From IMG/VR virus record IMGVR_UViG_3300049847_000416, positions 31,141-95,140 of that record: a DNA stretch of 64,000 bases; one strand, 5' to 3'. The stretch comes from a virus. Positions 4,003 through 64,000 of this stretch are shown here, in pieces; position 1 is the stretch's first letter, and each line of letters starts with the position of its first letter. The notes beneath the pieces were generated by a model. It made no database searches. It was not told where the DNA came from and saw only the letters and a list, made by a program, of their open reading frames with translations. Position numbers and translations under genes: made by a program.

Positions 4003-4659
4003 TCACCCGCACAGCCAATCTTGGTCTACGAGAACACCAGTGTCCCACTTCCAAGACACAAAATTGTGGTGCGCCACAATTCCTTTGTGGCTGCACGCCA
4101 GGGCGGGACACACGTCTAATCGCTGAGCTTTGGGAAGCGGGACGAGCGGGATATTCCAGCGCTTCGCGAGCATCTGCACCAACTCTTTGAGGGCTTGTTG
4201 CTGCGGTGGGGTGATTGCAGCCCAGAAGTCAAATCCCCGCCATGCCTTCGCCACATACTTCGTGGGTTCGTCCAGCGAACAATAGACTTTCCCGTACGTG
4301 TCCAGGAGTTGCTTGCCCTTCAGCTTCAGCGGTCCTTCACACACGACTTCAATTCCTATGGACCGTGTGTTAACGGATGTGGGACATACGTCCGTTCCGC
4401 CAATGTGCCAAGCCCACCCCTTGGCTGGATCAAAACATTGGTAGACCACGGACACACCTTTGACAGGTTTGTCTACCAAATAGGGGGTGGCGACTCTCAC
4501 TTCGTGCCCGTCTTGCTTGTCTGCGACCCAGCCAGCGTATGCGCCGGCTGCTGTGTACCCAGCGGTGTAGTGCAACAAGATACGGTCATAGGTGGGAGTC
4601 CCTACGTGCGCCACCCATTGATTGGGTGCCAGAGAAAATTTCTGAGTGTCCAAAATCAC
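4003..4659 (-). CDS. N-acetylmuramoyl-L-alanine amidase (Amidase_2), endolysin candidate
   Basis: 'ILLHYTAG', 'WAWHIG', 'NTRSIGIE', 'IVAH..K.D' zinc-amidase motifs. Confidence 0.88.
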   Translation of the reverse strand: MILDTQKFSLAPNQWVAHVGTPTYDRILLHYTAGYTAAGAYAGWVADKQDGHEVRVATPYLVDKPVKGVSVVYQCFDPAKGWAWHIGGTDVCPTSVNTRSIGIEVVCEGPLKLKGKQLLDTYGKVYCSLDEPTKYVAKAWRGFDFWAAITPPQQQALKELVQMLAKRWNIPLVPLPKAQRLDVCPALACSHKGIVAHHNFVSWKWDTGVLVDQDWLCG

Positions 4660-6023
4660 GTTTTCGAGCCCTCTACCAGGTCTTCAGCTTGGGGGTTGTC
4701 CCGGCTGTCTGCGGTGCTGTCGGGCTGATTGTTCGGATCCTCGCCACCCAGCACATCCAGTTCAGGTCCATCAATCGGCTGGACATTACCCATCCACGCC
4801 ACGTCTCCCCAGGGAACGGGGTCGAAGCCCAGACCAAGCCGCTCATTCACGGCATTGATTGGCCAACCAGTGCTCACCAAGACCTTGGCCGTGTTGGCTT
4901 TGTCCATGAGCGCTTTGCGCATGGCCGTGTTCTTGGTGAGATCATACCGAATCTCGATGTCGTCACCCCAGTGTGGGGTGAGTGAGTTATTGAAACTCGC
5001 CGCGATCCAGTCCAGCATCGGCACCAGCCGGTCTTCCAGGAAGCTCAAACGCGCGGTCTGGGCATTGGAATAGTTGGGATCAGGAGTTGCGCCGACCAAG
5101 ATGGCAGGCACTTGACAGATGGCGCAAAGTTCGTGCTTGGCGATCTCTCGGCCCTGCGTGAATTGCAGATCCGTGTGAGTCATCATCGTCTGCTGCCACT
5201 TCAGACCGCCCGTCAAGAGCATGGGGCTGTACAGATTCGCACCCGAGTACTGCTCTCGGACCGATTCTTTCAGGTCCTCTCGCTGTTCGGGGGTGACAAA
5301 CGAATCGGTGTAGAGCACACCGCTAGGCTGGGCGAAATTTTCCAGGAGGGCGGTATTCCAGGTGTGGGCGGCGTCTTCGTTCTGGATAGCTCGCACTGCC
5401 GCCGAGATGGGAGACAGGGACGTATATGGATTCAGGGGATCAGCATACCGCATGTACGAGACTTCCTGCGGCGGGAAAGTGACATCAGGAGCCGAGCTAG
5501 ACTCCATCCCCGATACCAACCGAAATCCCTTGATGAATTGGAGGGGATCGGTCACGACCTCCACCCAGTCAGGCCGCATGGGCCACAATTCTTTGACTTT
5601 GGTCCCACTGCGGGTGGTCTTTTTCTGGTCAGTAACCAGCACCTTCTGTGTGTACGACGCACCAGCCAAAAATAACGAATACAACATCACAGAGAACAGG
5701 TCCCGCTTAGTCATGTGCGGGTTCGGTTTCTGGATCAAGAGTTCCAGTTCGTGATCTCGGATAACCGTGTTCGTGCCCTTGTGGTGCACTTTCCAGTCAG
5801 GAGACACTAGCGACGTAGCCCAGTACTCCAGGCACGCACGAATCCACACAATCTGCTTCACGCCGTGCTGGATGCTCTGTTGAAACGACAGAGGCGCACC
5901 CTGATTGGTGCGGATGCCAAATCCGCTACCAAACCCAGATGTACTACCGTACAACTGGTTCAGGCTGGCGAGCCACAGGTTCGCCTTACTCCGTCTGGGT
6001 TTCAGAAGACTGGTGAGATTCAT
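4656..6023 (-). CDS. portal protein, HK97 family
   Basis: 'PNPHMT', 'LWPMRPDWV', 'SPISAA', 'N.AQPSGVL', 'NYSNA'; next to TerL. Confidence 0.93.
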   Translation of the reverse strand: MNLTSLLKPRRSKANLWLASLNQLYGSTSGFGSGFGIRTNQGAPLSFQQSIQHGVKQIVWIRACLEYWATSLVSPDWKVHHKGTNTVIRDHELELLIQKPNPHMTKRDLFSVMLYSLFLAGASYTQKVLVTDQKKTTRSGTKVKELWPMRPDWVEVVTDPLQFIKGFRLVSGMESSSAPDVTFPPQEVSYMRYADPLNPYTSLSPISAAVRAIQNEDAAHTWNTALLENFAQPSGVLYTDSFVTPEQREDLKESVREQYSGANLYSPMLLTGGLKWQQTMMTHTDLQFTQGREIAKHELCAICQVPAILVGATPDPNYSNAQTARLSFLEDRLVPMLDWIAASFNNSLTPHWGDDIEIRYDLTKNTAMRKALMDKANTAKVLVSTGWPINAVNERLGLGFDPVPWGDVAWMGNVQPIDGPELDVLGGEDPNNQPDSTADSRDNPQAEDLVEGSKT

Positions 6024-6043
6024 TGGTTCACTGTTTAAGATCG

Positions 6044-6613
6044 CTACTTTTTCATCCGGCTGCGTAGGATCATAAGCGCACGGGTATGGGCTTCAGCCGC
6101 TTCCGCTTTCGTGATCCCCAATTTTTGGGCGATCTGGCCCATGGGACTATCCTGGAAGTACTTGTGATAGATGACCGCGCGTTGAAGGGCAGTCAAGTGG
6201 GGCAGGGCATCCCGCAGTTGCTTCTTCAGGACCTGCATGTCGTGTGCTTCTTCCACAGCCGGGATACCGCCAAGCGTGGGGTCTGCCCGCTGCTGGTGAG
6301 GCGCGCCCCAGGGTTCGGTCCGCTTCATGTAGTTCATCTCAACGCGCATCAAGTCGAGATACGCCCCTTTGATGTGGGGGATCAGGAAAGAGGATAACGC
6401 GGAAGACTGGTCGTACCGATTGTGCGCTCGCATCACGCGAACTACCGCCGCACTCAGAAAGTCTTCGAATGTTGACGTGCCCGGATCCGCCGCCTTGAAG
6501 CTCTTGCAAGATCGCATGACGTACTGAACGATCATGGGGTAGACCTCGCGGGGCTGGCCGTCTTTGCCTTTAAGTTCGAGACTGAGGCGTGGGAACTGTT
6601 TGTGAGTTCTCAT
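6044..6613 (-). CDS. phage-encoded sigma-70 family factor (regions 2+4, FliA/ECF-like)
   Basis: 'EDFLSAA...RYD.SSALSSFL..HIKGAYLDLMR' (region 2); 'LPHLTALQRAVI..KYF...MGQIAQKLGIT' (region 4 HTH); AAGGA RBS before 6613. Confidence 0.88.
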   Translation of the reverse strand: MRTHKQFPRLSLELKGKDGQPREVYPMIVQYVMRSCKSFKAADPGTSTFEDFLSAAVVRVMRAHNRYDQSSALSSFLIPHIKGAYLDLMRVEMNYMKRTEPWGAPHQQRADPTLGGIPAVEEAHDMQVLKKQLRDALPHLTALQRAVIYHKYFQDSPMGQIAQKLGITKAEAAEAHTRALMILRSRMKK

Positions 6614-6624
6614 GTATTCCTTTG

Positions 6625-9069
6625 TTACGGATTCACACGGGAAATTCCCGGTGTGGACATCAAAAATTCGGTGCACATGGTGTTGAACGCGCCAGCGGTA
6701 GCGTCCCCGATATCATCGTGCAGATCGTTGTCGCCGGTCAGCCCGCAGATTTCCTGGAGCCAGTCTGTGGCCCAGACGCTATTGACCAACCAAACGTTTT
6801 GGTTCTGGGCTTGAGCCGCGAAGGGACTCCACCGGGCGCGTTTCGGTCCGCCTGGTGCTACGCCCATGATGTTATATCCCGGCAAGGACCGGACGAAGTG
6901 GGACACCAAAGACTTACCGGACGCGCCAGGTTCCCGCTCAATGCGCTGAAACACGTTAACACCATCGGACTTCATCGTGCCAATCACCCGCTGTTCAACA
7001 ATGGCGGGGTTCGACCGGAACCGCTGCATGTCTTCCACGACGATCCTGCCGATGGAATCACGCGCCATGAGAATGCCCACGGTGTAATCAGGATCCGTGT
7101 TGGGCTTGGGATCGGTCGCCGCCAAATCCCAAAACCGCAAGCGCAGGCACTTTCCGGCAACGGGCACCGGCTGCATCAGGAACCACTCGCGCTGGAACAC
7201 CGCATCAGTACGGGTGGCCATCCAATCGCCATACCGGCGTTGCCGGTAAGTGAGAGGATCCAGGTTCTTCAGCGACTTCTCATATTGCACTAAGTCAATT
7301 GCGGGGTTGTCCTCGATATAGAACGGAATGTACGCAATGTCAGGGTCTTTTCCCTGGTTCAAAACGTATTTGTCCCGCAGGAAGATGTGCGAGATGCCAC
7401 CCGGATTACTGACGAGTCTATAGCGCAACGGGATCGGATCCGTGATGACTTTGCGCAATCGCAGGAAGATGAACTCTAGCTGAGTCTGAGAAAACTGCCC
7501 GGCTTCGTCAATGCCGATGAAGTGGAATTCGGGACCGTCGTACTGGAACTTGTCTTGTTCCGTATTCATGTGACCGAACTTTAACACGGCCCCAGCCGGA
7601 AAGCGCACCTCATGGGTATCGCTGTTGAAGTGGAATGGGACGCCTGCCGCCTGCATCCTCCGCAAGGTGCGGTCCATAATCGAATTGGGAGACGCCAACT
7701 GACCAAGAGTTCGGCGCAGGATGAGCGCCCGGTAATTGGGCCGCGTCACATACTGCAACGCCGCCCGGATCAGGACTTCTGAATTGTGAGTCAGGATGTA
7801 GTGCTTCGTGCAGAACAAGTGGTCTTCGGCTTCCACCGCAATGCACGTACACTCTTCGGGCGCAACTGGCTCCACCGTGCGCACACTGCGCTTGGGCGCT
7901 ACCATGCCCTTCTTTTTGGTGTAGTCAGGTTGATATAGTGCAACCTTGCGCGGAAGCCGGAACGGCTGGACCCACGATGGGAGCCTCAAGCTGATCGGGT
8001 ACTCTATGCCCTTACCCGCCGCTGTGCGGTCGGCTGTGCTGATGACGGCTCTACCGCCCAGTCCTTCCACAAGCTCCCGGAAATTTTCTGCCAACTTATG
8101 GGAGGTAGTGTCAAACCGGATTTGGTGCGTGTTCTTCTTTCGGAACGCCATCCCGTCCGAGTCCATTAACCCCTGGAGAACGGCGATTCGGTAGGCGGGG
8201 GACGCACGGAGTGCGACTTCTGGGATAAACCGCTCGCCGGAGTATAGGCCGAGCAGACCGAGCTTATCCAGCGCATCGCGCTTACTGGCTCCGTAAGTTA
8301 CGTGGAAAGAGTGCGTCCCTTGAGCCAAATACGTGCGGTCAGGAGATCCCAAGTGCACAAGGATGTCAGGTGCGTCCCGGTCGTCCATCGCGATGCTAAC
8401 TTGCCGCCCAGCTAAAGAAGTAAGCTCACCATTACCGATGGCGTATCCTAGGAAGTACCCGTCTAGCTCAGGATCTGGTCCACAATCAAACTCCACTGGA
8501 CCGCTTAGCATCGGGATCGTGTCAGCCTTGCGGGCGCTGAGGCCCCGCAGTTCATCCGTGCGTACCACTCGTGTCTGAAGAGGCTTCCGCCCCGTTACTT
8601 CCCGAGACACCGTCCACAAATGATCGTCGGCGGCAGTCACCGAACTGCCGTCAGAGAATGTAACACGGCTGCAAGGCCGAATACCCTGCGGATACACTCC
8701 GATGACCTTGGTGGGTTTGCCGTTGGAGCCGATGACGTAGTCACCTTCCCGGATGTTTCCGAAGCGTCGGTAACCCTGTGGAGTCGGTATAAGTTGTTGA
8801 TTACAAAGGGCTTTGCCGTTACCACTTGCACCTCCGGCCATTGCTTGGTAGTGTGGCAACATGCAGAATGCCTTCTGCTTCGGGAACATAGGAAACACTT
8901 TCGTGTAGATGTTCTCCGTCTGCAAGTACTCTGCTTGGAACTTGCGCACGTCCACCATCCCCGCTCTCACTTTTTCCAGATTGGCTTGAAAAACAGAGAG
9001 GGGGAGCCCAGCCTTCCGGGCCATGTCTGCGTAGTCTATCGTGGGCAACTTAGTACTATCGTACCACAC
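6625..9069 (-). CDS. terL: terminase large subunit, intein-containing (start may be ATG 9024)
   Basis: Walker A GGASGNGK|S split by intein, Walker B 'IGIDEA', 'SNPGG', nuclease 'WDLA...DYT', 'HDD'. Confidence 0.95.
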   Translation of the reverse strand: MWYDSTKLPTIDYADMARKAGLPLSVFQANLEKVRAGMVDVRKFQAEYLQTENIYTKVFPMFPKQKAFCMLPHYQAMAGGASGNGKALCNQQLIPTPQGYRRFGNIREGDYVIGSNGKPTKVIGVYPQGIRPCSRVTFSDGSSVTAADDHLWTVSREVTGRKPLQTRVVRTDELRGLSARKADTIPMLSGPVEFDCGPDPELDGYFLGYAIGNGELTSLAGRQVSIAMDDRDAPDILVHLGSPDRTYLAQGTHSFHVTYGASKRDALDKLGLLGLYSGERFIPEVALRASPAYRIAVLQGLMDSDGMAFRKKNTHQIRFDTTSHKLAENFRELVEGLGGRAVISTADRTAAGKGIEYPISLRLPSWVQPFRLPRKVALYQPDYTKKKGMVAPKRSVRTVEPVAPEECTCIAVEAEDHLFCTKHYILTHNSEVLIRAALQYVTRPNYRALILRRTLGQLASPNSIMDRTLRRMQAAGVPFHFNSDTHEVRFPAGAVLKFGHMNTEQDKFQYDGPEFHFIGIDEAGQFSQTQLEFIFLRLRKVITDPIPLRYRLVSNPGGISHIFLRDKYVLNQGKDPDIAYIPFYIEDNPAIDLVQYEKSLKNLDPLTYRQRRYGDWMATRTDAVFQREWFLMQPVPVAGKCLRLRFWDLAATDPKPNTDPDYTVGILMARDSIGRIVVEDMQRFRSNPAIVEQRVIGTMKSDGVNVFQRIEREPGASGKSLVSHFVRSLPGYNIMGVAPGGPKRARWSPFAAQAQNQNVWLVNSVWATDWLQEICGLTGDNDLHDDIGDATAGAFNTMCTEFLMSTPGISRVNP
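7783..8811 (-). mobile_element. intein (343 aa) with LAGLIDADG endonuclease in TerL Walker A
   Basis: starts ALCNQQLIPTPQG, block B 'ADDHLW', 'FLGYAIGNG' and 'LQGLMDSDG', ends 'ILTHN|S'. Confidence 0.92.
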
Positions 9070-9260: not shown

Positions 9261-11102
9261 TTACTTTCGGAAGCCGACCAGGGCTTGTCCCGCTCCTCGG
9301 GCTGGATGGTGTCTCCATTGTGTCCAGCCTACGAAATTTCCCTTGCCGGAACCAGGGGTGCAGGCATGTTCGAACGGCGACCCATGCTCCGGCTCCGCTG
9401 TGCTCAGATCGTTGTACAACCGGAGGTCTTCCTTATAGTCAATCTTCCCGGACTGGGTCAAGTAGGACGTGCGGGCGCTCCGAGCGCACGAGATCTGGAT
9501 CCGCATCAAGATGTCTGCCAACTCCGTTGGTGGTTTATCAGCCAACGTCGCCGGAATGAACGGAAGGTGCCACTCTCCCTTTTTGACCAGTTTGGGAATA
9601 CTGGCCGCGAGGGCTTTGCGCATCTCGCGGGATGGCGCAGCAATCTCCGGTTGCGCCAACTCGGAATCTCGCTGGGCAAAGTAGTTGTCCCACTCAGTAC
9701 TGGTGACAAGAACCGTATGCCACAAGAACGGTTCCAGCACCCGGTTGGCAATCTGCTTGTGCAGACCCAGCACGTCCAGAGTGAAAGCAATTCCACAGGC
9801 GAGTAGCGCGCCGACGCGCCAGGCCACGCGGGCTACAAACTGTTTCCACCCAGTGATGGGTTGCCCAGCCTGCATGCCCTTTTTGTTCCGACCCCAATCC
9901 AAGGGGAAGGCGCAGTCGAACAGAACACTCTTAATGCGTTTGCGGATAGGGATAGCGCGTGAAGATGCGGAGTTCCGGGAATTGTGAACCACTACTCCGT
10001 TTGCGAAGAAATTGGGATATTCGCTGTCTATCTCAAGATCATAAGTAGGTTCGTCGCCTCGATAGGTCACTGACTCAACCTGGGCGGGTGCCGCGTACAG
10101 GTGATTACCACTGTCCTGCCAGCCCTGTACTTTGTGTTCTGTTTGATGACAAGAGGAGCAAAGCAACGTCACATTCGTCGGATCATACACACGCTCAGGA
10201 GCTTGGTAGACTGGGATGACGTGGTGAACTTCGACCCCGAGGTTATCACACCTTCGACAAGAGGGATTCTCTTTCTGCAACCGAGTCCGCTGCTCACGCT
10301 GCCACTGGGCTCGCCACCGCCCATCAAGGTACTTTAACCGGTTCGCGTCTTTCCGCTCAGACGCAGGGCGACCAAACTTCTGCGTGAGGATAAAATCTGC
10401 CGTGGTCAAGTCGCCAATGGTCTTCCAACCTGCCGTAGTTAAAACGCGGTGGTCCAAGCTCCCAGCTACGCAAAAGGCACCGGCTTTGACTTCGTACACC
10501 GGTTTCGTTCCTGAAACCTGCACGTTCTTCACACGTGCCCACTGAACAACGCCAGTCTGTTCATTAACCTGGCGAATTCGCATGGACTGCAAACGTGCCC
10601 GCATGTCAAAACGCGTGTGTGGCGGAACAGCACTCCGCCATGCCTTCAAGTCCTTCCCCAAAACCTGCCAATCCTCACTGCGTTGTGTTTTGGTCCCTAG
10701 GCATGCTCCTGACCGGCATGCCACCCGAATAGGTCCCGGCGTAGCCATACCCATTTTTTCCGCAGCATCTTTCGCGGTGTACACAGCCGAATCTTCACAC
10801 CAACTTAGATCATACGCGAGTTTGGGATTGGCTCCATGTCGGTTCGCACCGTGTAGCCACCGATCCACAAAAGTGTCCAAGCGCACTCGGTGCGAACGTC
10901 GAGAGCCGCCCTTCTGGGGCGTGGGTAAATCAAACTCTAGCTCAGCATCTCCCGCTAAGCAGAAGGTTCTGTGAGTGTTAAATTCCGGCAATACAAATCG
11001 GTGCATGACTACCAGTAGAGTAGTCACGCGCACGCCGGCGGTAGAAATCGAGTCTGCAATCACCTCGGCAGACGGCTTTGTTCGGTTGTAGAGATTGATC
11101 AT
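9261..11102 (-). CDS. thyX: FAD-dependent thymidylate synthase ThyX, intein-containing
   Basis: spliced motif 'EFNTHRTF|SRNSASSRAIP', 'LHKQIANRVLEPF', 'AQPEI', 'SPFEH'; ATGA overlap at 11102. Confidence 0.92.
   Translation of the reverse strand: MINLYNRTKPSAEVIADSISTAGVRVTTLLVVMHRFVLPEFNTHRTFCLAGDAELEFDLPTPQKGGSRRSHRVRLDTFVDRWLHGANRHGANPKLAYDLSWCEDSAVYTAKDAAEKMGMATPGPIRVACRSGACLGTKTQRSEDWQVLGKDLKAWRSAVPPHTRFDMRARLQSMRIRQVNEQTGVVQWARVKNVQVSGTKPVYEVKAGAFCVAGSLDHRVLTTAGWKTIGDLTTADFILTQKFGRPASERKDANRLKYLDGRWRAQWQREQRTRLQKENPSCRRCDNLGVEVHHVIPVYQAPERVYDPTNVTLLCSSCHQTEHKVQGWQDSGNHLYAAPAQVESVTYRGDEPTYDLEIDSEYPNFFANGVVVHNSRNSASSRAIPIRKRIKSVLFDCAFPLDWGRNKKGMQAGQPITGWKQFVARVAWRVGALLACGIAFTLDVLGLHKQIANRVLEPFLWHTVLVTSTEWDNYFAQRDSELAQPEIAAPSREMRKALAASIPKLVKKGEWHLPFIPATLADKPPTELADILMRIQISCARSARTSYLTQSGKIDYKEDLRLYNDLSTAEPEHGSPFEHACTPGSGKGNFVGWTQWRHHPARGAGQALVGFRK
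9981..10961 (-). mobile_element. intein (327 aa) with HNH endonuclease in ThyX active-site motif
   Basis: starts CLAGDAE, block B 'SLDHRVLT..GW', HNH 'CRRC..VHHVIP..NVTLLCSSCH', ends 'VVVHN|S'. Confidence 0.92.
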
Positions 11103-11293
11103 CGCAGCATCAGTTGAACGACTTTGGCCGTGAGGCCGATGTACAAGGGGAGGGCAACAACCACAGCCACGCCCAGGGCGACCAGTCGCCACTGACCCAC
11201 GTTCTCAGCGTGCTCCTCGGCATCAGCTTGAAGTTTCAGAACATACTCCGCCAACTGCTGCGGCGTGAGTTTGGATAAATCAGGTTGGTTCAT
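11099..11293 (-). CDS. small protein with C-terminal transmembrane helix
   Basis: AGGAG RBS, hydrophobic 'LVALGVAVVVALPLYIGL'. Confidence 0.6.
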   Translation of the reverse strand: MNQPDLSKLTPQQLAEYVLKLQADAEEHAENVGQWRLVALGVAVVVALPLYIGLTAKVVQLMLR

Positions 11294-11305
11294 GCAACTC
11301 CTATG

Positions 11306-11752
11306 TTAGGGGTGGACCACTCGGTAAGGAACGTCCGCCCAGAGCAAGTATTTCTTGCCCGCTTCTTGGGCTGTATGCAGCCCGCCCGTACCGGCCATGG
11401 TAGCGGCTACCACGCGGCGGATTCCCGCTGCCACAATCATTTTCGCGCACACGTCACAGGGACCGTGCGTCAAGTACAGCGTACTCCCGGCTGTGGCGTG
11501 CCCGGCTGCGGCAGCCGCGCCCAACGCGTTTTGCTCAGCATGCAGGACCAAAAAGTACTTCAGGTCTCGGTTGTTCCACAGTTCGGGAGTCTCGGGAATA
11601 CCTGCGGGAAACCCGTTGTACCCGGTGCCAATGATATGCCGACTGTCATTCACCAGCACGGCTCCCACCTGCGTGGAAGGGTCTTTGGACCGGGTGGCCA
11701 CCACCTCAGCAATGTTCAGAAAGTATCGATCCCAACATGGGATACTTCGCAT
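11306..11752 (-). CDS. dCMP deaminase
   Basis: 'RSKDPSTQVGAV', 'GYNG', 'HAEQNA', 'PCDVC'. Confidence 0.93.
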   Translation of the reverse strand: MRSIPCWDRYFLNIAEVVATRSKDPSTQVGAVLVNDSRHIIGTGYNGFPAGIPETPELWNNRDLKYFLVLHAEQNALGAAAAAGHATAGSTLYLTHGPCDVCAKMIVAAGIRRVVAATMAGTGGLHTAQEAGKKYLLWADVPYRVVHP

Positions 11753-11937
11753 GTCATCTCCTACTACGTTCTATTTCATCTTCTGGCTCCTCTACGGTTT
11801 TGGCCGTGAAAGAGCCCGCATACTCAGGCAGAGGGCGGGAAACGTATTCCCGAATCGGAATAGCCAATGGGGGAATGGGGATTGTCCAGTAAACTTCCAT
11901 GCCCCATCCTATCACGTTTTCCGCCCAGTTACAAGGT

Positions 11938-12306
11938 CTAGGTCTGCCAGGGGCCAGCGGAACCCTCGACCACGATATGCGACCACACCGGAGTGACAAT
12001 GCCGCTCATCCCGTTCCGGCAAACCACATGATGGTTACCCGACTTGCGGATATGGACGGTGGTGACATTCGAAAAACAGACACGACTTCCGTTGTGCAGC
12101 CAGTAGGTCCGCAAGCGTTCATTCACGTGCAGCGTGCGCTCTTGATGCTGAACCGGACATTGAACCGGACAGGGCCGGCATTCCTGCTGGTACTTCGCTG
12201 CGAGTTCGATAGCTTCATCGCGCTGGCGCAGGATGGCGTCCCGGTCTTTGCGGGCAGCCTCCAACTGGAGTTCACAGACCGTGGGGTAGTGACAACTCGT
12301 AGGCAT
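11938..12306 (-). CDS. hypothetical protein
   Basis: ORF in operon-like array. Confidence 0.5.
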   Translation of the reverse strand: MPTSCHYPTVCELQLEAARKDRDAILRQRDEAIELAAKYQQECRPCPVQCPVQHQERTLHVNERLRTYWLHNGSRVCFSNVTTVHIRKSGNHHVVCRNGMSGIVTPVWSHIVVEGSAGPWQT

Positions 12307-12309
12307 AGG

Positions 12310-12741
12310 TTATTCGTCATCTTTCTGGGTCACCCACGCGGGGACCTCGGTAGTAGCAACATAGCCAACAAAACTCGCGTGGTTGGCGAAGTACGCCAGC
12401 GGCGAGCCTGCAAAATCGGGATTCACCCGAGCATCAGCAAGCAGCGTGTCGAACCACATTGCCTTAGCCAAGTGATCGGCTGTATGGATGTCGTCCTCAC
12501 CCGGCGTTTTCAAAAGCTCGCGCAAGTACGGCATTTGCCACATCAACCGGTGGCGAGCCGCGTGCATCACCCGGTCTCGCACCCAGGCAATATTCCATGC
12601 CCCGTAATGCCAGTTCGGTCGATCCCCTGAGGGGGGATATTTGATGTGACCCTCAGCAAACACCGCGCCGACGGCGAACAGCGCGCCTCCAGGGATCAGT
12701 TCCACGCCGCTTTGGGTTACAACAGACGTGCCCCCTTTCAT
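12310..12741 (-). CDS. dATP/dGTP diphosphohydrolase-like protein (DUF5664-like)
   Basis: 'LIP..AL..V..VF..G..KY....NW..G', 'HAARH', 'DHLAKAMW'. Confidence 0.7.
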   Translation of the reverse strand: MKGGTSVVTQSGVELIPGGALFAVGAVFAEGHIKYPPSGDRPNWHYGAWNIAWVRDRVMHAARHRLMWQMPYLRELLKTPGEDDIHTADHLAKAMWFDTLLADARVNPDFAGSPLAYFANHASFVGYVATTEVPAWVTQKDDE

Positions 12742-13649
12742 TCAGACACCCTGAAGATCTGGTTGGCCAGACTAACCGCGATCAACTCGTGGTCTTCTGT
12801 GGTCATGTTGTCGATGTCGATAGTGTGACTGGAGTGCTCCCCAACCACGAAGTGGTACATGCGGTGTCTAACGCCCTGAAAGGTCTCGGTGACAACCGCC
12901 TGAGGATCCCACCCCGTAGGAATAAAATCATGCATGATGAAGTGGGTGCCTGCTGGTGTCCGCTTGAACTGTTCCGCCATGGCTGCCACGATATCAGGCA
13001 TGAGGTACATGAATACGGCGCTATTCGGCGGCAGGGTGGAAAAGTCGAATTCGAGGGCGTTCTGCTGCTTGACAGTGGCAGTGGTTACTGCCACTCCCAG
13101 TTTTGCTTGCACCTGAGCCAAGAGATGCGTGGCTGTAGCCACCTGATCAGAGTTGGTATCCACGCCGGCGACATTGGGAATACCCCGCTTCAACGCCAAC
13201 GCCAGCGCCCGCCCGTCGCCGCACCCAATATCAAAGAAGTGCTGGACGCCAGCCGGCAGCATGTCCAAGCCCTTCGTCAGGAAATCGATGGGTGTAGGGA
13301 CGTAGGGAGCCGTCAGCTTGGTGATTTCCCTGGGTCTGTTTTCGATGAGTTCACCCATGACACTCGTCATGTCCTGTAGGTGACAGGCGTAGATGCAGTC
13401 CAGGAACTTTTCGAAGCTGACGGTTCCGTGGATGTGCTGATCACTCATACTGGCGGCATACAAGATCGTAGCCACGTCTCGGATACAAGCGGGGGTCCAT
13501 CCCGACTTCAGGTCACAGTTAGCGATCCGCAGATACTTGAGCGCGGGTCCATTGAGTTGCAGATCGCGCGGCTTGTCCAATAGCACCCGGATTTTGATGC
13601 GTCCAGTGGTACGTCTGGCGGTGGACTTTAGGTAGATTGTTTTTGCCAT
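12738..13649 (-). CDS. class I SAM-dependent methyltransferase (protein Lys-MTase-like) with N-terminal extension
   Basis: 'FFDIGCGDGR', 'AGVD', 'NALEFDFS', 'VFMYL'. Confidence 0.8.
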   Translation of the reverse strand: MAKTIYLKSTARRTTGRIKIRVLLDKPRDLQLNGPALKYLRIANCDLKSGWTPACIRDVATILYAASMSDQHIHGTVSFEKFLDCIYACHLQDMTSVMGELIENRPREITKLTAPYVPTPIDFLTKGLDMLPAGVQHFFDIGCGDGRALALALKRGIPNVAGVDTNSDQVATATHLLAQVQAKLGVAVTTATVKQQNALEFDFSTLPPNSAVFMYLMPDIVAAMAEQFKRTPAGTHFIMHDFIPTGWDPQAVVTETFQGVRHRMYHFVVGEHSSHTIDIDNMTTEDHELIAVSLANQIFRVSE

Positions 13650-13838
13650 TGAGCTTTCTGGAGTAACAGATTGAGATTGGTTTGGTTGAAGGTAATGATA
13701 GCGACAAGGGAAGCATGTGCGTCTGCGTATTCTAGCAGACGGTCTGGAGAAATTTTCGCCAACTCCCCCGATGCCCGAGACATGCACTCTTGCATGTCTC
13801 GGATCACACTGGCGAGTGTAGGAGCTATGGGGGCCATG

Positions 13839-14744
13839 TTAGCGGCTGAACAGCGTCACTGGTCGGGGAAGCGGGGCAGCCGGGGCAGCCGGGGCAGCCG
13901 GGGCGTTCATGTTCAGCAGCGTTAGACGCCGCACGGTACCTTCCAACGCGGCTACCCGGTCTTCTAGGGATGCGGCAGACGGGGCGTCAGGTGAGGGAAG
14001 CGCACCCTTTACACCCACCAACCACGACCCTGTGAGTTCGAATCGCGCCCACTCCTCATCCGCGCGGAGCATTCGCTCCCGGACCGGAATTGAAACCGTG
14101 TTTGAGCCAAACACGTCCTCCGGGCGAGGACTGACGAATACCACAGTGTCCACTGGACCGGGCTCCGCGAAACGACCGGGATATCCGACACCGTTTTGTG
14201 TCTGGAGCGCCCGCAAGTCCCCACAATTAACCCAAAACGGGGCAGTCTTCGGACCGGTGACCTGGAACATGAACTGCCGACGGGGATCTCCGGCATCATA
14301 CATCACCTCGAACGGACCCGCAACACCATAATCCTGGACGGGACCAACTTGCCAGCCGGCCTGTGTCAGCGCAGCCGACAAGCTCGCCGCTTCCTCGGGG
14401 GTCGTCAGTTCCGCTGGGTTGATGGTGACCGGCAGCATTCCCGGTCCCTGGAATGTTTTGTGCTTGGTTGGTGGCAGTTCGAGCGGAAGGTACTTGCCAC
14501 CCGGAAGATTGGGGCGCGAGAAATCTTCAAACGGGGACACCTTCTGGTCTTTGTAGACCGGAGTTAGCGCCCCGCCCTCCGAATAGTATCCATACGCCTC
14601 GATTCCTTTCGGCAAACTGAGGTCCACCCAGTCTCTGTGCGGACGGGTGGGATCAAACGGCGGGAGATCGCTGCCGAACTTGGCTCGCCAAGTGTCGCGC
14701 GTGTACCGCGTAGCGGTGGTAAGAATTGTGCGAGGAGAGATCAT
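13839..14744 (-). CDS. hypothetical Pro-rich protein
   Basis: AGAAGGA RBS before ATG 14744; C-terminal coiled coil and PAA repeats. Confidence 0.7.
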   Translation of the reverse strand: MISPRTILTTATRYTRDTWRAKFGSDLPPFDPTRPHRDWVDLSLPKGIEAYGYYSEGGALTPVYKDQKVSPFEDFSRPNLPGGKYLPLELPPTKHKTFQGPGMLPVTINPAELTTPEEAASLSAALTQAGWQVGPVQDYGVAGPFEVMYDAGDPRRQFMFQVTGPKTAPFWVNCGDLRALQTQNGVGYPGRFAEPGPVDTVVFVSPRPEDVFGSNTVSIPVRERMLRADEEWARFELTGSWLVGVKGALPSPDAPSAASLEDRVAALEGTVRRLTLLNMNAPAAPAAPAAPLPRPVTLFSR

Positions 14745-14783
14745 GCTTATGTTTCCTTCTACGGTTTTAGTATACCACAAATA

Positions 14784-14814
14784 AAAGTGAGGCTGCCGGG
14801 TAAGGGCAGCCTCA
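14784..14814 (-). terminator. intrinsic terminator
   Basis: GAGGCTGCC/GGCAGCCTC stem followed by ACTTTT. Confidence 0.75.
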
Positions 14815-14835
14815 AAAACAGACGCGAGATGAAAC

Positions 14836-15330
14836 CTATCGTTCTTCGTACTTGATCGAGATGGTGACGACACCCGTCATCACACCTGTGTGAATGGCGA
14901 AGGCCTGGTTCATTCCGATTGAAGCATCCACGGGGATCGTCGTGGAACCACCGGCTCCCAGTGAAAACGCCTTGAAGATGATTTGCCCGGACGCAGCCGC
15001 CTGTGGCATGTTCGTCCGCACTTCCGAAAACCCCTGGAGGGTGTCTTGTAGGCCGACCGCCGCAATCACCGTTCCAGTAGTGGCAACAGTGTGGCGGATC
15101 TTTTGGGTAACCACACACGCCGCTGAGCACTCGATGTAAAACGACTGAATGCGGACTTGGCGTCCACCGTCTTTCAGAACGGTGGATACGGGGTTTACGA
15201 TGGACAACGCCGCTACCGAAGCAGCGGGAGACAGCGTAGCCGTCGCGACGAACGTTCGCGAGGTCAAAGAGGACTGGGCAAAGACACAGCCCCCCAGAGC
15301 GAACGCTACTAACAGCATTCGCGCGATCAC
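14836..15330 (-). CDS. secreted beta-rich protein (signal peptide)
   Basis: MIARMLLVAFALGGCVFA|Q; CxxxC pair in mature part. Confidence 0.7.
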   Translation of the reverse strand: MIARMLLVAFALGGCVFAQSSLTSRTFVATATLSPAASVAALSIVNPVSTVLKDGGRQVRIQSFYIECSAACVVTQKIRHTVATTGTVIAAVGLQDTLQGFSEVRTNMPQAAASGQIIFKAFSLGAGGSTTIPVDASIGMNQAFAIHTGVMTGVVTISIKYEER

Positions 15331-15827: not shown

Positions 15828-16217
15828 TCAAAACATGCTCAACGAAAAACTCTCGTACCACTGAATCTCCAACACGAGAGATTCCATCGCCGACTCGAAC
15901 ACCTTATCGATACTCAAACTGGTTTCCATCACGTCTCCCAGGCTGTCCTTGAGGAGAAATTTTCCGTTCTGATGCTGGATCTGCACACTCCAGAGCATTT
16001 CAGACAGCTTGCCAGCCGTCTCCTCCCAGAACGCCAGGTAACACTTTTCCTTGTGCATCATCAATCCCACGACAAACTGAAACCCATTGAACCGGTATCG
16101 ACAGGCGTACATGTTGGGTTGATCTGTGGCCGTGAACTGAATCTGAAACTTGACTTGCGCCCGTTGCGCAAACATCGGGAGACCTTCAGGGATCAAAAAT
16201 CGCTGCCAAATCTTCAC
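15828..16217 (-). CDS. hypothetical protein
   Basis: ORF overlapping upstream stop. Confidence 0.6.
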   Translation of the reverse strand: MKIWQRFLIPEGLPMFAQRAQVKFQIQFTATDQPNMYACRYRFNGFQFVVGLMMHKEKCYLAFWEETAGKLSEMLWSVQIQHQNGKFLLKDSLGDVMETSLSIDKVFESAMESLVLEIQWYESFSLSMF

Positions 16218-17174: not shown

Positions 17175-17449
17175 TGCCCCAACCACCGTACTGACCCAAG
17201 AATCCCCACGACGGTGCCCAGCACACCGCCCGCCGCGTAGAAGAACCACAGGAGCAAAGAGTCTTCGTCCTTGTTTTTGATGAGTCGCCGAAACACGAAG
17301 AATTGAAGAGACGCGAGGGTGAAGTCTACGACGATGGAAGTGGGTATGTTGGCCTGACTCACCGAGCGCCAAGATACTGTGCAGAGGCCCCAGCTTAGAA
17401 ACTGGGACAGGCCCATGTAGCAGGCCTCTTTCCAGGGATAGTTTTTCAC
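17171..17449 (-). CDS. small multi-pass membrane protein
   Basis: three hydrophobic segments. Confidence 0.65.
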   Translation of the reverse strand: MKNYPWKEACYMGLSQFLSWGLCTVSWRSVSQANIPTSIVVDFTLASLQFFVFRRLIKNKDEDSLLLWFFYAAGGVLGTVVGILGSVRWLGQ

Positions 17450-47085: not shown

Positions 47086-47496
47086 ATGAACCTGCTCCTG
47101 CCTCTGCTGCTTCTGGCGCAGCCCATCGTTCAACGTGGGGATGTTATCACCCTGACAGTGTCCGTCATCTTGACGCCCAAGACGGCACGAACCTCCACGG
47201 TCGCTTGGGAGCTTGTCCCACCGGCAGGCTGGACAATTAGCGGATCCACCCCCGGTTCTGCGACCACGGCGGCGGGGAAGACGCTGCGGTGCAATCCCAG
47301 CTTTTCATCGTGCATTGTGTACTCAGCCGCACCAGGGATTCTGCAATCTGGTCCCCTGGCCACGTTCACGCTGACCGTACCCCCTACGGCAGCCCGGAAA
47401 AAGACGACGTTCTCATTCAGGAAAATTTCTGGGGCGACTGCCGGCGGAAAACCCGTGGCTATCGTGTTGGATCCTCTGACCGTGGTGGTGCAATGA
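47086..47496 (+). CDS. secreted cohesin-like domain protein
   Basis: MNLLLPLLLLA|Q; 'AAGKTLRC......CIVY...GPLATFTLTV'. Confidence 0.65.
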   Translation: MNLLLPLLLLAQPIVQRGDVITLTVSVILTPKTARTSTVAWELVPPAGWTISGSTPGSATTAAGKTLRCNPSFSSCIVYSAAPGILQSGPLATFTLTVPPTAARKKTTFSFRKISGATAGGKPVAIVLDPLTVVVQ

Positions 47497-47784
47497 TCAA
47501 CCCGGACGACCTGGCGCAGTACTACGAAGAAGTGGTCACGGATCTACAGAAGAAAAACCCGTTCCTAGCCCCTGGCGTTCGTGACTCCCGGCTACTCTCC
47601 TGGGACTTGGCAAAAGAAGATAGCAAAACAGTACGAACGGTCTATTCCCAGACCGTTCCGCAACCGGCACAATCACTTCAGAGAAAGCCAGTGCCTGATG
47701 GTTATACGGTTTGCCACCCGCAAGTGCCGTACGCCGGGCTGGAAGTCAGCATAGTGTATTTTGAAGAGATCACAGAGATTGACA

Positions 47785-48165
47785 ATGCAGACCACGAAAC
47801 CGAAAAACGTACAGCGGTTGATCGATAGGCTTCGCCGCTTACCAAACGGTGCCACCGCTGGTATTGAGAACGATCTCATGGCCAAATGGGAGCAGAAGCA
47901 CTCGGACTGCGGCACAGTAGGGTGTATCGCGGGCGAAGTCCTGCTGGAGTTCTCTCCCGGATACCCGTCTGCGTTGGGACGCTACCGGTTGCCGTTCGTC
48001 GAACACAATTTAGGGCTGACGATGCCCCAAACTTTGGACCTGTGCTTTCTCGACCGCTGGCCTGACAAGCTGAGGGCAGAGTTTCGGCGGGCAGCCCGAG
48101 CAAAGACACTGAAGAGTCAGCGGAACGTGATGATAAAGCGGCTCGAACTGCTGCTGGAGGACTGA
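47785..48165 (+). CDS. TTKPENV/CGTVGCIAGE family paralog 3
   Basis: internal similarity. Confidence 0.8.
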   Translation: MQTTKPKNVQRLIDRLRRLPNGATAGIENDLMAKWEQKHSDCGTVGCIAGEVLLEFSPGYPSALGRYRLPFVEHNLGLTMPQTLDLCFLDRWPDKLRAEFRRAARAKTLKSQRNVMIKRLELLLED

Positions 48166-51445: not shown

Positions 51446-51628
51446 ATGAAGAAATTCGCCGTGATTTTCATCCTCGCCGTGGGCGCGCTCGTCATGAACG
51501 CCTCCAATGGCACCCCGCATCCGAAACGGCTACCAAAGCCCGGTGATCGCCTGTGCGTCATCGTGCCGGCTGAAGGAAGTTGTGCGGGTTGCCATAACTG
51601 GTATCCCGCCGACTGTATCGACTTCTAG
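51446..51628 (+). CDS. small secreted 4-Cys peptide
   Basis: MKKFAVIFILAVGALVMNA signal; AAAGGA RBS. Confidence 0.65.
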   Translation: MKKFAVIFILAVGALVMNASNGTPHPKRLPKPGDRLCVIVPAEGSCAGCHNWYPADCIDF

Positions 51629-51710
51629 AACTCGCAGGATTCAGCGGCCTGGGTGGCCGCAGAAATGCGGTCACCCGCCACCCCACCACCCAAGAGAGGA
51701 GAAAATTTCT

Positions 51711-52172
51711 ATGGTAACCTACGAAGTGCAGTTGACGCGTACAAAAGACGCCCGAGAGGCATTGTCAGGCACGTTTGACCACGTAATCCTACGTGGTCCA
51801 CTATCCGGCTCCGAGCTTCAACGATGGCTAGACCGGGCTAGAAGCCGTTACAGCTTCACCTGGAACGGAGAGTCGTACTTTGTCACTAGCATGGTGGCGA
51901 CCCAGCACAATCCCCACCCAGCGGCCTACGACATTCTGGAAAAAGGCACATTGCTCGCCAGCGGCGGAAATTTCTGCATAATGCAGCACGAAAACAGCGT
52001 TTATACGCTGGTTTACGACAATAAATTCGCCACAGACGACAATGCCCACGCCGGTTGGAAAATTCAGCACGTAGAGCAGATAAAGAAAGAGTCCAAACCG
52101 GTCACCTTCGCCGACTTGAAAGGGCTATTTGCTGCTGATTCGTTCTTCGGACGGACAGACGAACAAACCTAG
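51711..52172 (+). CDS. hypothetical protein
   Basis: GAGGAG RBS. Confidence 0.6.
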   Translation: MVTYEVQLTRTKDAREALSGTFDHVILRGPLSGSELQRWLDRARSRYSFTWNGESYFVTSMVATQHNPHPAAYDILEKGTLLASGGNFCIMQHENSVYTLVYDNKFATDDNAHAGWKIQHVEQIKKESKPVTFADLKGLFAADSFFGRTDEQT

Positions 52173-52670: not shown

Positions 52671-52896
52671 ACCCGTAGAAAGAAAATTTCCATGACTGAA
52701 CAGGCGCAGGATAGTTTATGGCAACAAGCAAAGCAACGGAGGTATCTTCGTTACGCCCGCGAGAGCGTTATCAGTGCCGCGAAAGCCTGGGTAAACTTTG
52801 AAGACGACGGCTTGGCCAAGACGGCACATTTGCAGGAACGATACAACAGCCGGCTAGTAAAGGCGGTTACCCGCCTGGAAAAGCTGGAGGCCCGTG

Positions 52897-53295
52897 ATGC
52901 CGGCTGAGAATAACCGGCTGCTGTGTGATTGGTTGGGAATTCCAGCAACCGATTCCAACTACTGCGCCACGTGCGATCACTCCTCCAGGATGCACGAAGA
53001 GGACTGGTGCGGGGTGGGGGCTTGCGACTGCTCCCTGTGGGTTGCCGCTAAGATCTACCCGGATCTAGCCTCAGAAACCGGCTTCTGGGTGCTTCGAAAG
53101 GCATTGCTGGTCAAGGGTTACCGCGTAGAGTTGGACAGCGATGACCGCGCGTACGTATTCAATGATAACAACCTGGCGGTAGGCCCTGGGCCAGTCCCCC
53201 ACACCGCTTTATTCCGGGCAGCCTGGGCGCTCCGCACTAAGATGCAGGAACAAATGGCTAATGAACAAGCAACTAGTCGGACGGAGGCCAAATGA
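52897..53295 (+). CDS. hypothetical protein with zinc-binding insert
   Basis: 'CATCDH...H...C....CDC'. Confidence 0.6.
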   Translation: MPAENNRLLCDWLGIPATDSNYCATCDHSSRMHEEDWCGVGACDCSLWVAAKIYPDLASETGFWVLRKALLVKGYRVELDSDDRAYVFNDNNLAVGPGPVPHTALFRAAWALRTKMQEQMANEQATSRTEAK

Positions 53296-53591: not shown

Positions 53592-54329
53592 ATGACGACA
53601 CCAAACACGAATGAAGGGCGGGCTTACGAAATTTTCCGCCAGCACGCCGAAGCGATGGAAACCGCCCAGCGCATTGACCGGGCGAAGAAAATTGCGGAAG
53701 AACTGTCCACATCGAAGCAGTGGATTGAGGACGTTCGCAAACAGATCGATTACGTGCTGCAATCCACGGATAACCAAGACGCGTTCACGGAAGCTGTGCA
53801 CGGGGCGCTGGTGCAAGCGTATGTCGCCGGCAAGTTCTCGGACTCAACAGCCAAGCTGGTAGCCAAGCAGCCCGAGCCGAAGCCCCAACCGCCGCTTTAC
53901 GGCAACTTGATCGAGGTGCTCAGCGATCAGTGCGCCCACCGGATCTTTAAACTGTGGTGGTTGACCGATGCAACTCAAGAGAACGAAGCTTGGAAGCGTC
54001 ATGTTGTGTCAGATCTCATCTCCGAGGTGAGCCGGGACGTGTTAAACCCGAAAGAGCCTGACTCCGACTACTTCGCTTACACCTACGCTTCCACCAAGGA
54101 AGCGCTTGCGGTCGCGAAAGCCATCCATGAGTACCTTCAGGAGAACGCGTACAAAGCAAAGCGGGGATCGATTTCCGTGATTGCCCGGCTCGACGGTACG
54201 TGTGAGGTTCAAGTCCTGGCGTCAATCATACGTGGGCTGCCTGGAATTGCAGAGATCGCCCGGAAAGATGGCCGCTTGATCCAGTCACCTCTCTGCTTCG
54301 GGCCAGTCACGAACAAGAACAAACTGTAG
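53592..54329 (+). CDS. hypothetical protein
   Basis: AAAGGA RBS. Confidence 0.6.
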   Translation: MTTPNTNEGRAYEIFRQHAEAMETAQRIDRAKKIAEELSTSKQWIEDVRKQIDYVLQSTDNQDAFTEAVHGALVQAYVAGKFSDSTAKLVAKQPEPKPQPPLYGNLIEVLSDQCAHRIFKLWWLTDATQENEAWKRHVVSDLISEVSRDVLNPKEPDSDYFAYTYASTKEALAVAKAIHEYLQENAYKAKRGSISVIARLDGTCEVQVLASIIRGLPGIAEIARKDGRLIQSPLCFGPVTNKNKL

Positions 54330-56210: not shown

Positions 56211-56395
56211 CAGAAAATTTCTGCCCTTGTGTTTTGTTGTATTTAGGGCCAGCAGAAAATTTCCGCACCCTGTCTTTGGAGTGTGGAGCACCTGTTTCTG
56301 GCGACCCAGCAGAAAATTTCTCGGACCCCTGTTTCTGCGACCCAGAAAATTTCTGTCCTTGTGTTTTGTTGTATTTAGGGCCAGCAGAAAATTTC
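56211..56395. repeat. 53-bp direct repeat (56211-56263, 56343-56395) with five GAAAATTTC sites
   Basis: direct reading. Confidence 0.9.
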
Positions 56396-61348: not shown

Positions 61349-61362
61349 GTAGCTCCCCTTTC

Positions 61363-62633: not shown

Positions 62634-62758
62634 GTTCTTATCTCTCTCTCTCTTGTCTGAAGGTATTCGGTAGCTCTCTGCCACCTGAAACAATCTTATC
62701 AGATCTGAGAAATCGTGCAAGCGGTAAATCACCTTAGCTGACCTTAGAAACCACTGTG

Positions 62759-62955
62759 GTACCAGCGGTCTATGCTGGCCAGTACTCCGCTCCTACTCCC
62801 TGTTTCCCAGTACCAATGACCTATGCCGGCTAGAACCGGCGTACCATGCCGACGCGTACCAGTACGAACGGTCTACGCCGTCCTAGAACCGGCGTACCAT
62901 GCCTAAGGTAAACCACCTAGAGTACTAAGGCGGTTCCACTATGCGGCCCAGTACC
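62759..62955. repeat. degenerate ~52-bp tandem repeats including exact 21-mer at 62830 and 62883
   Basis: CTAGAACCGGCGTACCATGCC twice; GTAC-N4-GRYCTA three times. Confidence 0.8.
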
Positions 62956-63552
62956 TCCGGCCTACGACTAAGGGGATTCCCCGATGCGCCTCGGGTGTTT
63001 CCCCTAGGCGCATGGTACGCGAGTACCAGCCGCACCCTCCCCTTCCCTGCCTTAGCCGGCCATGGGTTATTCTGTGATGGTTCGATGAACTTTTCTGAAA
63101 ACTTCCAGGGTTGAAAGAAGTAGGAGAAAGCACGCCCAGGGGCGGCGGAAAATTTCTGGTAGTGTGTTTTCTTACACTTAGGCCCTTGCGGAAAATTTCT
63201 GGATGGGGTGGAAGCGGGGATTGATGCTTGGGCTCGGGACGGATGAACTGATCTGAGGCCCTACAACGCGCTGGGGACCGGCAGGGTAGGGAAGGTTCAC
63301 CTGGAGTCTAGCAGTCGCACAGGGGCTTTCTGTGGCTCAAAGAACTGGCACACAGGGCAAGCTGACAGAGCAGTGGGCAGGAAGCGGAAAGAGCACACGC
63401 GCGACCTTCCGGCCATTCTGGTAAACCACGAGACAACAGTTGAGAGCAGCCGCAAAGCAGCCAGAAAATTTCTGCCCTACTGTTTTGTTGCACTTAGCCT
63501 AGTTAGCCCGTGTCAGAAACTTAGTGAGGCCACCGCAGAAAGCAGGCGCTTC

Positions 63553-63774
63553 CTACGCACTATCCCGGAGAATGGTATCCCGTAAGCGCTTGCGAAACGC
63601 TGCGTCATAGGGCTTCGGAGCCAGAATGGCGTCTATGTCCTGCCGTGTGAGCCGGTAATTGCGCTTGCTGTTGCCTTGTCCTCTCGCTCGGCCTGTGGTT
63701 TTCAGGCCCGGAGTGATCGCGTTGTAGATGGTAGCGGCACGAAGGTTATCCAGAGGTCGGTAGATGCTTGCCAT
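63553..63774 (-). CDS. small basic protein, leaderless
   Basis: GGCCTA-TTGACA-17-TATGCT-6nt-ATG. Confidence 0.7.
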   Translation of the reverse strand: MASIYRPLDNLRAATIYNAITPGLKTTGRARGQGNSKRNYRLTRQDIDAILAPKPYDAAFRKRLRDTILRDSA

Positions 63775-64000
63775 GAACCCAGCATACGGCAGGTCGGCAT
63801 GTTTGTCAATAGGCCAAACGCAGAAGAAAACAAACGCCCAGAAAATTTCTCCAGGACTAGGCCAGGGCTTCGAAGCCCGGCCCTCCGCTGTGGGTTTCCA
63901 TGGTTGTTTCAGTCTCAAAGAAGCTGGCACGTTTGTTTCCACGTGGGAAATAAACGCGTCGTCTCGGTCTCCGGCGCTGTGGGGCCGGTGGGCCACGAGG

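Follow-up and report, generated by a model that had tools for sequence, protein, structure and literature searches.

Selection maintains a dispersed palindromic word as DNA in an HK97-type phage genome: a candidate docking site for a two-fold symmetric protein

Background

Dispersed words with two-fold symmetry have, to our knowledge, been reported in a few phage groups, none with a proven reader or job. Cluster O mycobacteriophages carry a 17-bp dyad repeat, TGTTCGG-NNN-CCGAACA, for which a dimeric binder was proposed and whose function is unknown (Cresawn et al. 2015, PMC4351075). Its more than 30 dispersed copies combine invariant inverted arms with an A/T-rich centre that shows a slight transcription-related bias; they are found between genes, close to 5′ gene ends and deep within coding sequence. 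Single synonymous changes destroy them, and they are kept across relatives and not found in the host (PMC4351075). Here we describe a word of comparable kind, GAAAWTTTC (W = A or T), in a 64,000-nt stretch of viral DNA (hereafter the window), which comprises bases 31141–95140 of the linear 95,140-bp IMG/VR virus record IMGVR_UViG_3300049847_000416. According to its Pfam matches, the record represents an HK97-type tailed phage.

Three further systems serve as points of reference. ParB/parS and KorB/OB use palindromic sites that are scattered over the replicon and additionally clustered, the usual parS being 16 bp long. HIP1 of cyanobacteria is a sharp, GC-rich palindrome of the host genome, which occurs densely and in all reading frames, is linked to methyltransferases and has an unsettled function. 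The stoperators of the temperate Cluster A mycobacteriophages are asymmetric 13-mers oriented with transcription, which are read by a monomeric two-domain repressor of the L5 gp71 type, consisting of a helix-turn-helix (HTH) and a stoperator domain (PMC9283540). An initial annotation of the window, made from its letters alone, had suggested that GAAAWTTTC is the binding site of a genome-wide repressor, organizer or packaging/partition factor of the stoperator or parS kind.

Abundance and sharpness of the word

A pattern search recovered GAAAWTTTC 26 times in the window, with all 26 previously listed coordinates being exact matches, and 36 times in the full record, where the reversed word used as a control is absent. 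The initial annotation had estimated fewer than one copy by chance; 100 dinucleotide-preserving shuffles of the window gave a mean of 0.50 ± 0.72 sites (maximum 3). GAAAWTTTC ranks among the most over-represented 9-mers of the record, its two forms being present 22 and 14 times against 0.5 and 0.4 expected copies, and Markov models up to order 3 predict at most 0.5 copies per form.

The core of the word is all-or-none, because its 50 one-mismatch variants, when pooled, remain at background level (21 observed, 18.2 expected). The record contains zero copies of GAAA[C/G]TTTC, and each of its 24 AAAATTT strings is preceded by G, with C following in 22 of them. Mild enrichment was seen for the 8-bp A3T3 relative (7 copies; 2.0 expected) and for the 10-bp A4T4 relative (2 copies; 0.1 expected).

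Selection on the word inside genes

About two thirds of the sites lie within open reading frames (ORFs), where all three reading frames are represented and the encoded peptides are ENF or EIF, (G/R)(K/N)F(L/R), or x-K-(I/F)-S. When synonymous codons were shuffled within genes, 3.5 ± 1.7 coding sites remained (maximum 9 in 1000 trials), compared with 25 observed. The word is present at ~25 of 34 protein-permissive positions: ENF is spelled GAA AAT TTC in six of seven cases and EIF is spelled GAA ATT TTC in five of six, with a codon-usage expectation of 0.11 for either. The permissive peptide contexts are themselves threefold enriched (34 versus 10.7 ± 3.2 after residue shuffling). The price of the word is paid in non-preferred codons and even in altered protein sequence.

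Codon-preserving shuffling had been proposed in the initial annotation as a check, and higher-order Markov or codon models as the explanations that would overturn its view. The enrichment withstands the shuffle, and both explanations are excluded because the synonymous shuffle and the Markov models fall far short of the observed counts. Selection maintains GAAAWTTTC as DNA across the whole genome. That the excess arose by chance, or as a side effect of nucleotide composition, codon usage or a peptide motif that recurs, is vanishingly improbable, given that all null models yield 0.5–3.5 sites where 25–36 are observed and that the word is found in three frames encoding different peptides.

The sites in the window are listed below in window coordinates, together with one 10-bp variant; no strand is assigned to any of them, and gene strands are given in parentheses.

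2052–2061: 10-bp variant GAAAATTTTC, immediately upstream of the capsid-gene ribosome-binding site
4634–4642: dispersed site, 14–22 bp beyond the portal stop; 5′ end of amidase ORF 4003–4659(−), frame 2, QKFS
5334–5342: dispersed site, portal gene, frame 0, ENF spelled GAA AAT TTC
8080–8088: dispersed site, TerL intein, LAGLIDADG region, frame 0, ENF
13749–13757: dispersed site, 5′ end of methyltransferase-like gene 12738–13787(−), frame 0, ENF
15956–15964: dispersed site, gene 15828–16217(−), frame 1, GKFL
17959–17967: dispersed site, gene 17446–18723(−), frame 0, ENF
18244–18252: dispersed site with the full 13-mer, gene 17446–18723(−), frame 0, ENF
29216–29224: intergenic site, 28 bp upstream of a 2515-aa gene; palindrome 3 bp longer; notable hairpin
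30172–30180: dispersed site, overlap of genes 29477–30220(−) and 30162–30974(−), frame 1, GKFL
34387–34395: dispersed site, gene 33918–34685(+), frame 1, GKFR
35516–35524: intergenic site, between genes 34713–35363 and 35686–36399
43879–43887: dispersed site, gene 43709–44185(+), frame 2, QKIS
46431–46439: dispersed site, gene 46224–46544(+), frame 0, EIF
47421–47429: dispersed site, gene 47289–47828(+), frame 0, ENF
51701–51709: dispersed site, ORF 51507–52172(+), frame 2, EKIS; 1 nt before internal ATG 51711, behind a GAGGAG run
52682–52690: intergenic site, ending 1 nt before the ATG of the 71-aa gene 52692–52907
53628–53636: dispersed site, gene 53592–54329(+), 36 nt past the start, frame 0, EIF
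56213–56395: cluster 1, five sites starting at 56213, 56255, 56312, 56345 and 56387, in a 660-bp non-coding gap
63148–63472: cluster 2, three sites starting at 63148, 63191 and 63464, in an 820-bp non-coding gap upstream of the DUF932 gene
63841–63849: site near a promoter-like element, ~30 bp upstream of the −35 box of TTGACA-17-TATGCT

The site that had been reported inside the TerL intein is thus the one at 8080, in the LAGLIDADG part. The spacing of the dispersed sites has a coefficient of variation of 0.85, compared with 0.95 for random placement (p = 0.28), and does not support even coverage. A slight enrichment was observed near gene starts, with seven of 28 dispersed sites located within 50 nt of one versus 3.0 for random positions (p = 0.03).

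Flanks, centre base and the hairpin question

Base preferences continue beyond the core: among the 36 sites of the record, position −2 is C in 24, −1 is A in 22, +9 is T in 24 and +10 is G in 20. These graded, symmetric flanks extend the core to the 13-bp palindrome CAGAAAWTTTCTG, or in its fuller form s-CA-GAAAWTTTC-TG-s. The initial annotation described the word as often extended to this 13-mer, which is generous, with individual flank bases conserved at 56–67% and the complete 13-mer found at seven of the 36 sites.

Complementary flank pairs were observed 15, 19 and 11 times, compared with 17.0, 15.8 and 9.9 predicted from base frequencies, each half-site favouring A at −1 and C at −2 regardless of the other. 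A palindromic extension is absent at 21 of the 36 sites, and the predicted RNA hairpins are mostly weak (z-scores +0.2 to −1.2), with sites 56213 and 29216 folding better than shuffles. Because the flanks do not covary and most hairpins are weak, hairpin, terminator and cruciform models are disfavoured; base read-out through two independent half-site contacts fits the flanks better. We therefore regard it as very unlikely that GAAAWTTTC functions at the RNA level or by folding into a DNA hairpin, be it as a terminator, a processing site or a hairpin promoter. A terminator scan does mark two sites, 56209(+) and 63855(−), and the better folding of 56213 and 29216 speaks for such a role as well, but the T-rich tails in the clusters are located on the strand opposite the local genes.

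The initial annotation also noted a polarized central base, with 8 of 9 sites left of 31 kb in the window carrying one form and 15 of 17 sites to the right carrying the other. These window counts are right, yet the trend fades over the whole record: in the 31 kb left of the window, where gene orientation is unchanged, the centre is A in six sites and T in four, and on the sense strand of genes A (15 sites) does not significantly outnumber T (9 sites). One repeated unit accounts for eight of the 15 rightward A sites. In our view the centre is a free W, any regional trend being weak, which is also what the Cluster O authors concluded for their repeat (PMC4351075).

Phased clusters at the early-gene region

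Cluster 1 is located where the early-gene array ends downstream and adjoins T-rich tracts; cluster 2 is located near the upstream end of the array. Start-to-start spacings within cluster 1 are 42, 57, 33 and 42 bp. The clusters contain four copies of a 53-nt unit, D3, in which two sites 42–43 bp apart surround a T/G-rich spacer with a TTAGG box. The two copies in cluster 1 (56211–56263 and 56343–56395) are 98% alike; those in cluster 2 (63146–63198 and 63462–63514) have diverged and are 68–70% alike.

The promoter-like element TTGACA-17-TATGCT lies 6 nt ahead of the ATG of a gene for a 73-aa basic protein, 63553–63774(−), within the region 63553–63809. Judged from this arrangement, the gene is probably leaderless and the promoter-like element would drive its expression. 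A systematic adjacency of the word to late-promoter-like TAGTAT boxes was not found.

The word in relatives

Using megablast, 49 kb gave no match to cultured phages, and the closest cultured-phage portal match is at most 30%. Portal-profile scans of viral, genome and metagenome collections yielded five comparable contigs (L005, L006, L007, L011 and L009) and no close prophage; the capsid profile revealed no closer relative, and searching for loci with the capsid or the DUF932 protein alone gave no match.

L005 and L011 (~80% amino acid identity, 4.4 kb each) and L006 (42%, 5 kb) each contain two copies of GAAAWTTTC, where ~0.02 would be expected. The site positions are non-orthologous between the window phage and these relatives. 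At portal site 5334, L005 keeps the peptide ENF but spells it GAA AAC TTT and has no site; the L011 orthologue of site 4634 has nearly identical residues and likewise no site. The conservation that the initial annotation had proposed to look for in relatives applies to the word and not to its positions. One of the two L005 sites is located in an extra 148-aa ORF (L005 2837–3283) between the sigma factor and portal genes, which is absent in the window phage.

L007 (39% identity, 10.9 kb; IMG sample 3300037462) is syntenic with the window from 12700 to 440 and contains zero copies of GAAAWTTTC. It carries instead (c)AAGAAWTTCTT(g), with seven copies versus 0.09 expected, four of them in ORFs and in two frames. 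This word has the same 13-bp frame, centre and ends as that of the window phage (CAGAAAWTTTCTG versus the L007 counterpart CAAGAAWTTCTTG); the half-sites, W-TTTCTG in the window phage and W-TTCTTG in L007, differ by a swap of two adjacent positions. The intergenic region between protease and capsid genes holds a site in L011 (2985), the L007 word in L007 (9072) and the 10-bp variant in the window. No such word was found in the more distant relatives L009 and L175. Dispersed words of its own occur in the distant relative L176 (Ga0307983_1000149; 29% portal identity), namely the asymmetric TGAGACATAA, with ~11 copies in 21 kb when both strands are counted, and CTCCWGGAG, with nine copies.

Ten GC-rich hexamer palindromes (CAGCTG, CCCGGG, CCGCGG, CGATCG, CTCGAG, CTGCAG, GACGTC, GAGCTC, GGCGCC and GTCGAC) are entirely missing from the whole record, in which 15–47 copies of each would be expected, and CGGCCG, GGGCCC and TCCGGA occur once each. 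This absence is an extreme restriction-escape signature. It is common to L007 (0 versus ~32 expected), L009 and mostly L006, while three of the ten hexamers are not avoided in L005 and L011. Since L007 shows the same avoidance with a different word, and L005 and L011 a partly different avoidance with the same word, GAAAWTTTC tracks the phage lineage and not the host-linked avoidance signature, which provides modest evidence for a phage-encoded reader.

Comparison with described systems

Among known systems, the word resembles the Cluster O dyad repeat most closely, a likeness of kind without homology of sequence or phage. Both are dispersed, have invariant arms and an A/T centre, and are lost by synonymous changes; in the phage studied here, the 36 exact copies, the background-level variants, the presence of both coding and intergenic sites and the sharing of the word with L005, L011 and L006 all follow the Cluster O pattern. 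In contrast to that repeat, GAAAWTTTC is a 9–13-bp odd palindrome with a single W at its centre and an A/T-only core in a genome of 56% guanine-cytosine (GC) content. It further differs in that about two thirds of its sites lie within genes, where permissive codon contexts are nearly saturated, in the turnover of its positions, in the shifted word of one relative and in its two phased clusters.

The word shares with stoperators a length of 13 bp, a density of about one copy every 2 kb and the location of some copies in genes, and the stoperator reader is a phage protein. Unlike the asymmetric stoperators, its core is a perfect odd palindrome with symmetric flanks, and its sites, in which the centre base alone could define an orientation, are not oriented with transcription. 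The palindromic site and the lack of orientation rule out the stoperator membership raised in the initial annotation, and neither an integrase nor an Xre-type HTH (HTH_3) was found in the 73%-complete record. With ParB/parS and KorB/OB, the word has in common its scattered palindromes and clusters, and a loader that binds and then spreads or slides would explain the many sites. However, the usual parS, at 16 bp, is longer than the word, whose core is A/T-only, and the suggested parS membership is not supported by the record, itself a fragment, in which ParB_N is missing. Like HIP1, it is a sharp, dense palindrome that occurs in genes and in all frames; unlike HIP1, it is phage-specific and also forms phased clusters. 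A full-text literature search for the word returned primers only.

A scan for two copies of AGAAAATTTC 30–36 bp apart, which selected for this pattern, yielded 47 loci. Paired AGAAAATTTC elements 41–46 bp apart are present in at least six unrelated phage groups with GC contents from 32% to 60%, for instance in Enterococcus phage SEsuP-1. In the groups examined, the pair is located inside a 234–285-aa ORF directly upstream of a 418–492-aa ORF; HTH_36 was detected in four of six tested pair-bearing ORFs and a DnaB-like helicase in both tested downstream ORFs. Paired (T)GAAGAAAATTTC(A) iterons in an HTH_36 gene upstream of a DnaB-like helicase were noted in SEsuP-1 (L235; MZ333458.1 8951–9808) and in L062, L074, L148, L224 and L226. 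The SEsuP-1 gene labelled 'type II restriction enzyme, methylase subunit' looks like a mis-annotated replication initiator.

Because the AGAAAATTTC core is shared with the iterons of HTH_36 initiators, it can be a protein recognition element, and by analogy an iteron origin would be a fair reading of cluster 1. Unlike those iterons, both clusters of the window phage are non-coding and lack an HTH_36 or DnaB gene: neither HTH_36 (PF13730) nor DnaB (PF03796) matched in the record, and the ORFs flanking the two clusters have no family match. A broader two-site pattern scan returned mostly AT-rich chance matches and tandem repeats. An example of the latter is the unrelated viral contig L072, in which 7459–7762 is a terminal tandem array of 11-bp units containing GAAAATTTC, a simple repeat that is not dispersed.

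A docking site and its alternatives

We lean, with moderate confidence, towards GAAAWTTTC being a docking site for a two-fold symmetric, sequence-specific DNA-binding protein that is probably phage-encoded and co-evolves with its site. Selection on DNA in all frames, the sharp core, the base preferences of the half-sites, the phased clusters and the co-varying word in a relative all fit this reading. Of the initial proposal, the general part, a genome-wide protein-binding site, is consistent with all tests run; its stoperator and parS versions are not supported. A dimer would read the two half-sites W-TTTC(t)(g), and the single dispersed sites would distribute the protein across the genome. 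At the downstream end of the early region and near its upstream end, the phased clusters, with pairs 42–43 bp (four helical turns) apart, would assemble higher-order complexes. These could switch early transcription off or obstruct it, or else designate an origin or a signal for packaging or injection.

Several observations weigh against a phage-encoded docking protein. The all-or-none sharpness fits an enzyme recognition site too, the random-like spacing of the dispersed sites shows no sign of a designed even coverage, and the reader may be encoded by the host. Searches for a reader in the phage were negative: Pfam and PHROGs assigned no DNA-binding family to ~70 ORFs except the ECF-type sigma factor, ParB_N (PF02195) gave no match at E ≤ 1 in the 95-kb record with positive controls passing, and Phage_integrase, HTH_3 and HTH_36 were not found in this 95-kb fragment. 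Of two candidates adjacent to sites, the 73-aa protein gave a low-confidence AlphaFold model, with a predicted local distance difference test score (pLDDT) of 61, and the model of the 71-aa protein is a plain helical hairpin; neither provided a usable lead. For the 73-aa protein, the ESM Atlas gave weak excisionase and HTH_17 leads only, and no homologues were found.

An enzyme could account for several of the same features. The word might be what a DNA-modifying or restriction-type enzyme recognizes; it would then be kept as a self-mark and form a phage counterpart of the cyanobacterial highly iterated palindromes, and its reader could be a DUF4942 adenine-methyltransferase-like protein (38601–40112) or the putative base-modification gene cluster. 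A core that is all-or-none and palindromic with a W centre is reminiscent of type II sites, the word-level restriction pressure on this phage is extreme (ten absent hexamers), and the phage encodes two methyltransferase-like proteins, a dCMP deaminase and a MazZ-like pyrophosphohydrolase. Yet enrichment is not normal for modification targets, and neither graded flanks beyond the core nor clusters phased at 42–43 bp are expected of an enzyme site, so that we consider this explanation unlikely. A literature search on DUF4942 provided nothing useful. In a related and rather doubtful scenario, GAAAWTTTC would be a mark of 'self' under extreme restriction pressure, a single A/T palindrome placed in all permissive codon contexts. 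By this mark a phage binder or modification enzyme would tell phage from host DNA, with a specificity that drifts between lineages, as in L007. If this were true, the word would correspond, in a virus, to the highly iterated palindromes, and its function would be readable.

It is also rather improbable that the word is set by the host, as a Chi-like, uptake-like or nucleoid-protein site copied to use or evade a host machine. A dense, frame-independent and sharp word with position turnover does resemble Chi and uptake sequences; however, known Chi and uptake words are asymmetric, Chi words are G-rich, and the clusters of phased repeat units would be left unexplained. The combination of shared avoidance with a different word in L007, and of partly different avoidance with the same word in L005 and L011, likewise argues against the host. 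We ascribe an equally small chance to the clusters being replication-origin iterons, with the dispersed copies titrating the initiator in the manner of DnaA boxes or plasmid iterons and an HTH_36 initiator of the lambda-O type encoded in the missing part of the genome. The paired AGAAAATTTC elements with their origin-inside-initiator-gene layout point in this direction, as does cluster 1 with its five sites in 183 bp of non-coding DNA beside T-rich tracts. But the search for these pairs selected for that very pattern, their iterons have other flanks, (T)GAAG...(A), and are limited to two or three sites per locus with no dispersal seen in the DNA covered, no HTH_36 or DnaB is present in the record, and the near-saturation of permissive codons is far above the needs of titration.

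Returning to the favoured docking site, the case is unusually clean, with an exact core, about three quarters of the possible codon contexts filled and a one-step variant in a syntenic relative. The matched pair of words in the window phage and L007 provides a handle on the reader, namely orthologous proteins with differing recognition residues, and allows one to ask whether such words organize, silence, replicate or mark phage DNA.

Genome context and further observations

CheckV estimates the completeness of the record at 73%, and an ORF truncated at its left end shows it to be a fragment. Pfam matches comprise capsid protein, prohead protease, portal, a MuF-like protein, amidase and TerL with a LAGLIDADG intein, as well as dCMP deaminase, a MazZ-like pyrophosphohydrolase, two methyltransferase-like proteins, a ClpX-like AAA+ protein and a DUF932 protein; most non-structural ORFs have no family match, and Rfam and tRNA scans gave no matches. 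The gene for the ECF-type sigma factor is located between TerL and portal (6044–6676) and is conserved in L005 (2274–2840) and L007 (4438–5127). Genes are directed leftward up to 30974 and rightward from 31903 to ~54950, followed by small early-type genes that run leftward from 55369 to the end of the record.

Beside the packaging genes, a nucleotide-metabolism block (9261–14873) encodes a 643-aa protein split by an HNH intein, dCMP deaminase, a protein with a MazZ-like dATP/dGTP pyrophosphohydrolase N-domain and a methyltransferase-like protein. Given this gene content, the phage DNA may carry a modified base. Finally, a 19-bp direct repeat with the 10-bp palindrome TGAAATTTCA at its centre occurs twice, 82 bp apart (30913–30920 and 30995–31002), at the start of gene 30162–30974 in a divergent control region, and may constitute a separate operator pair.

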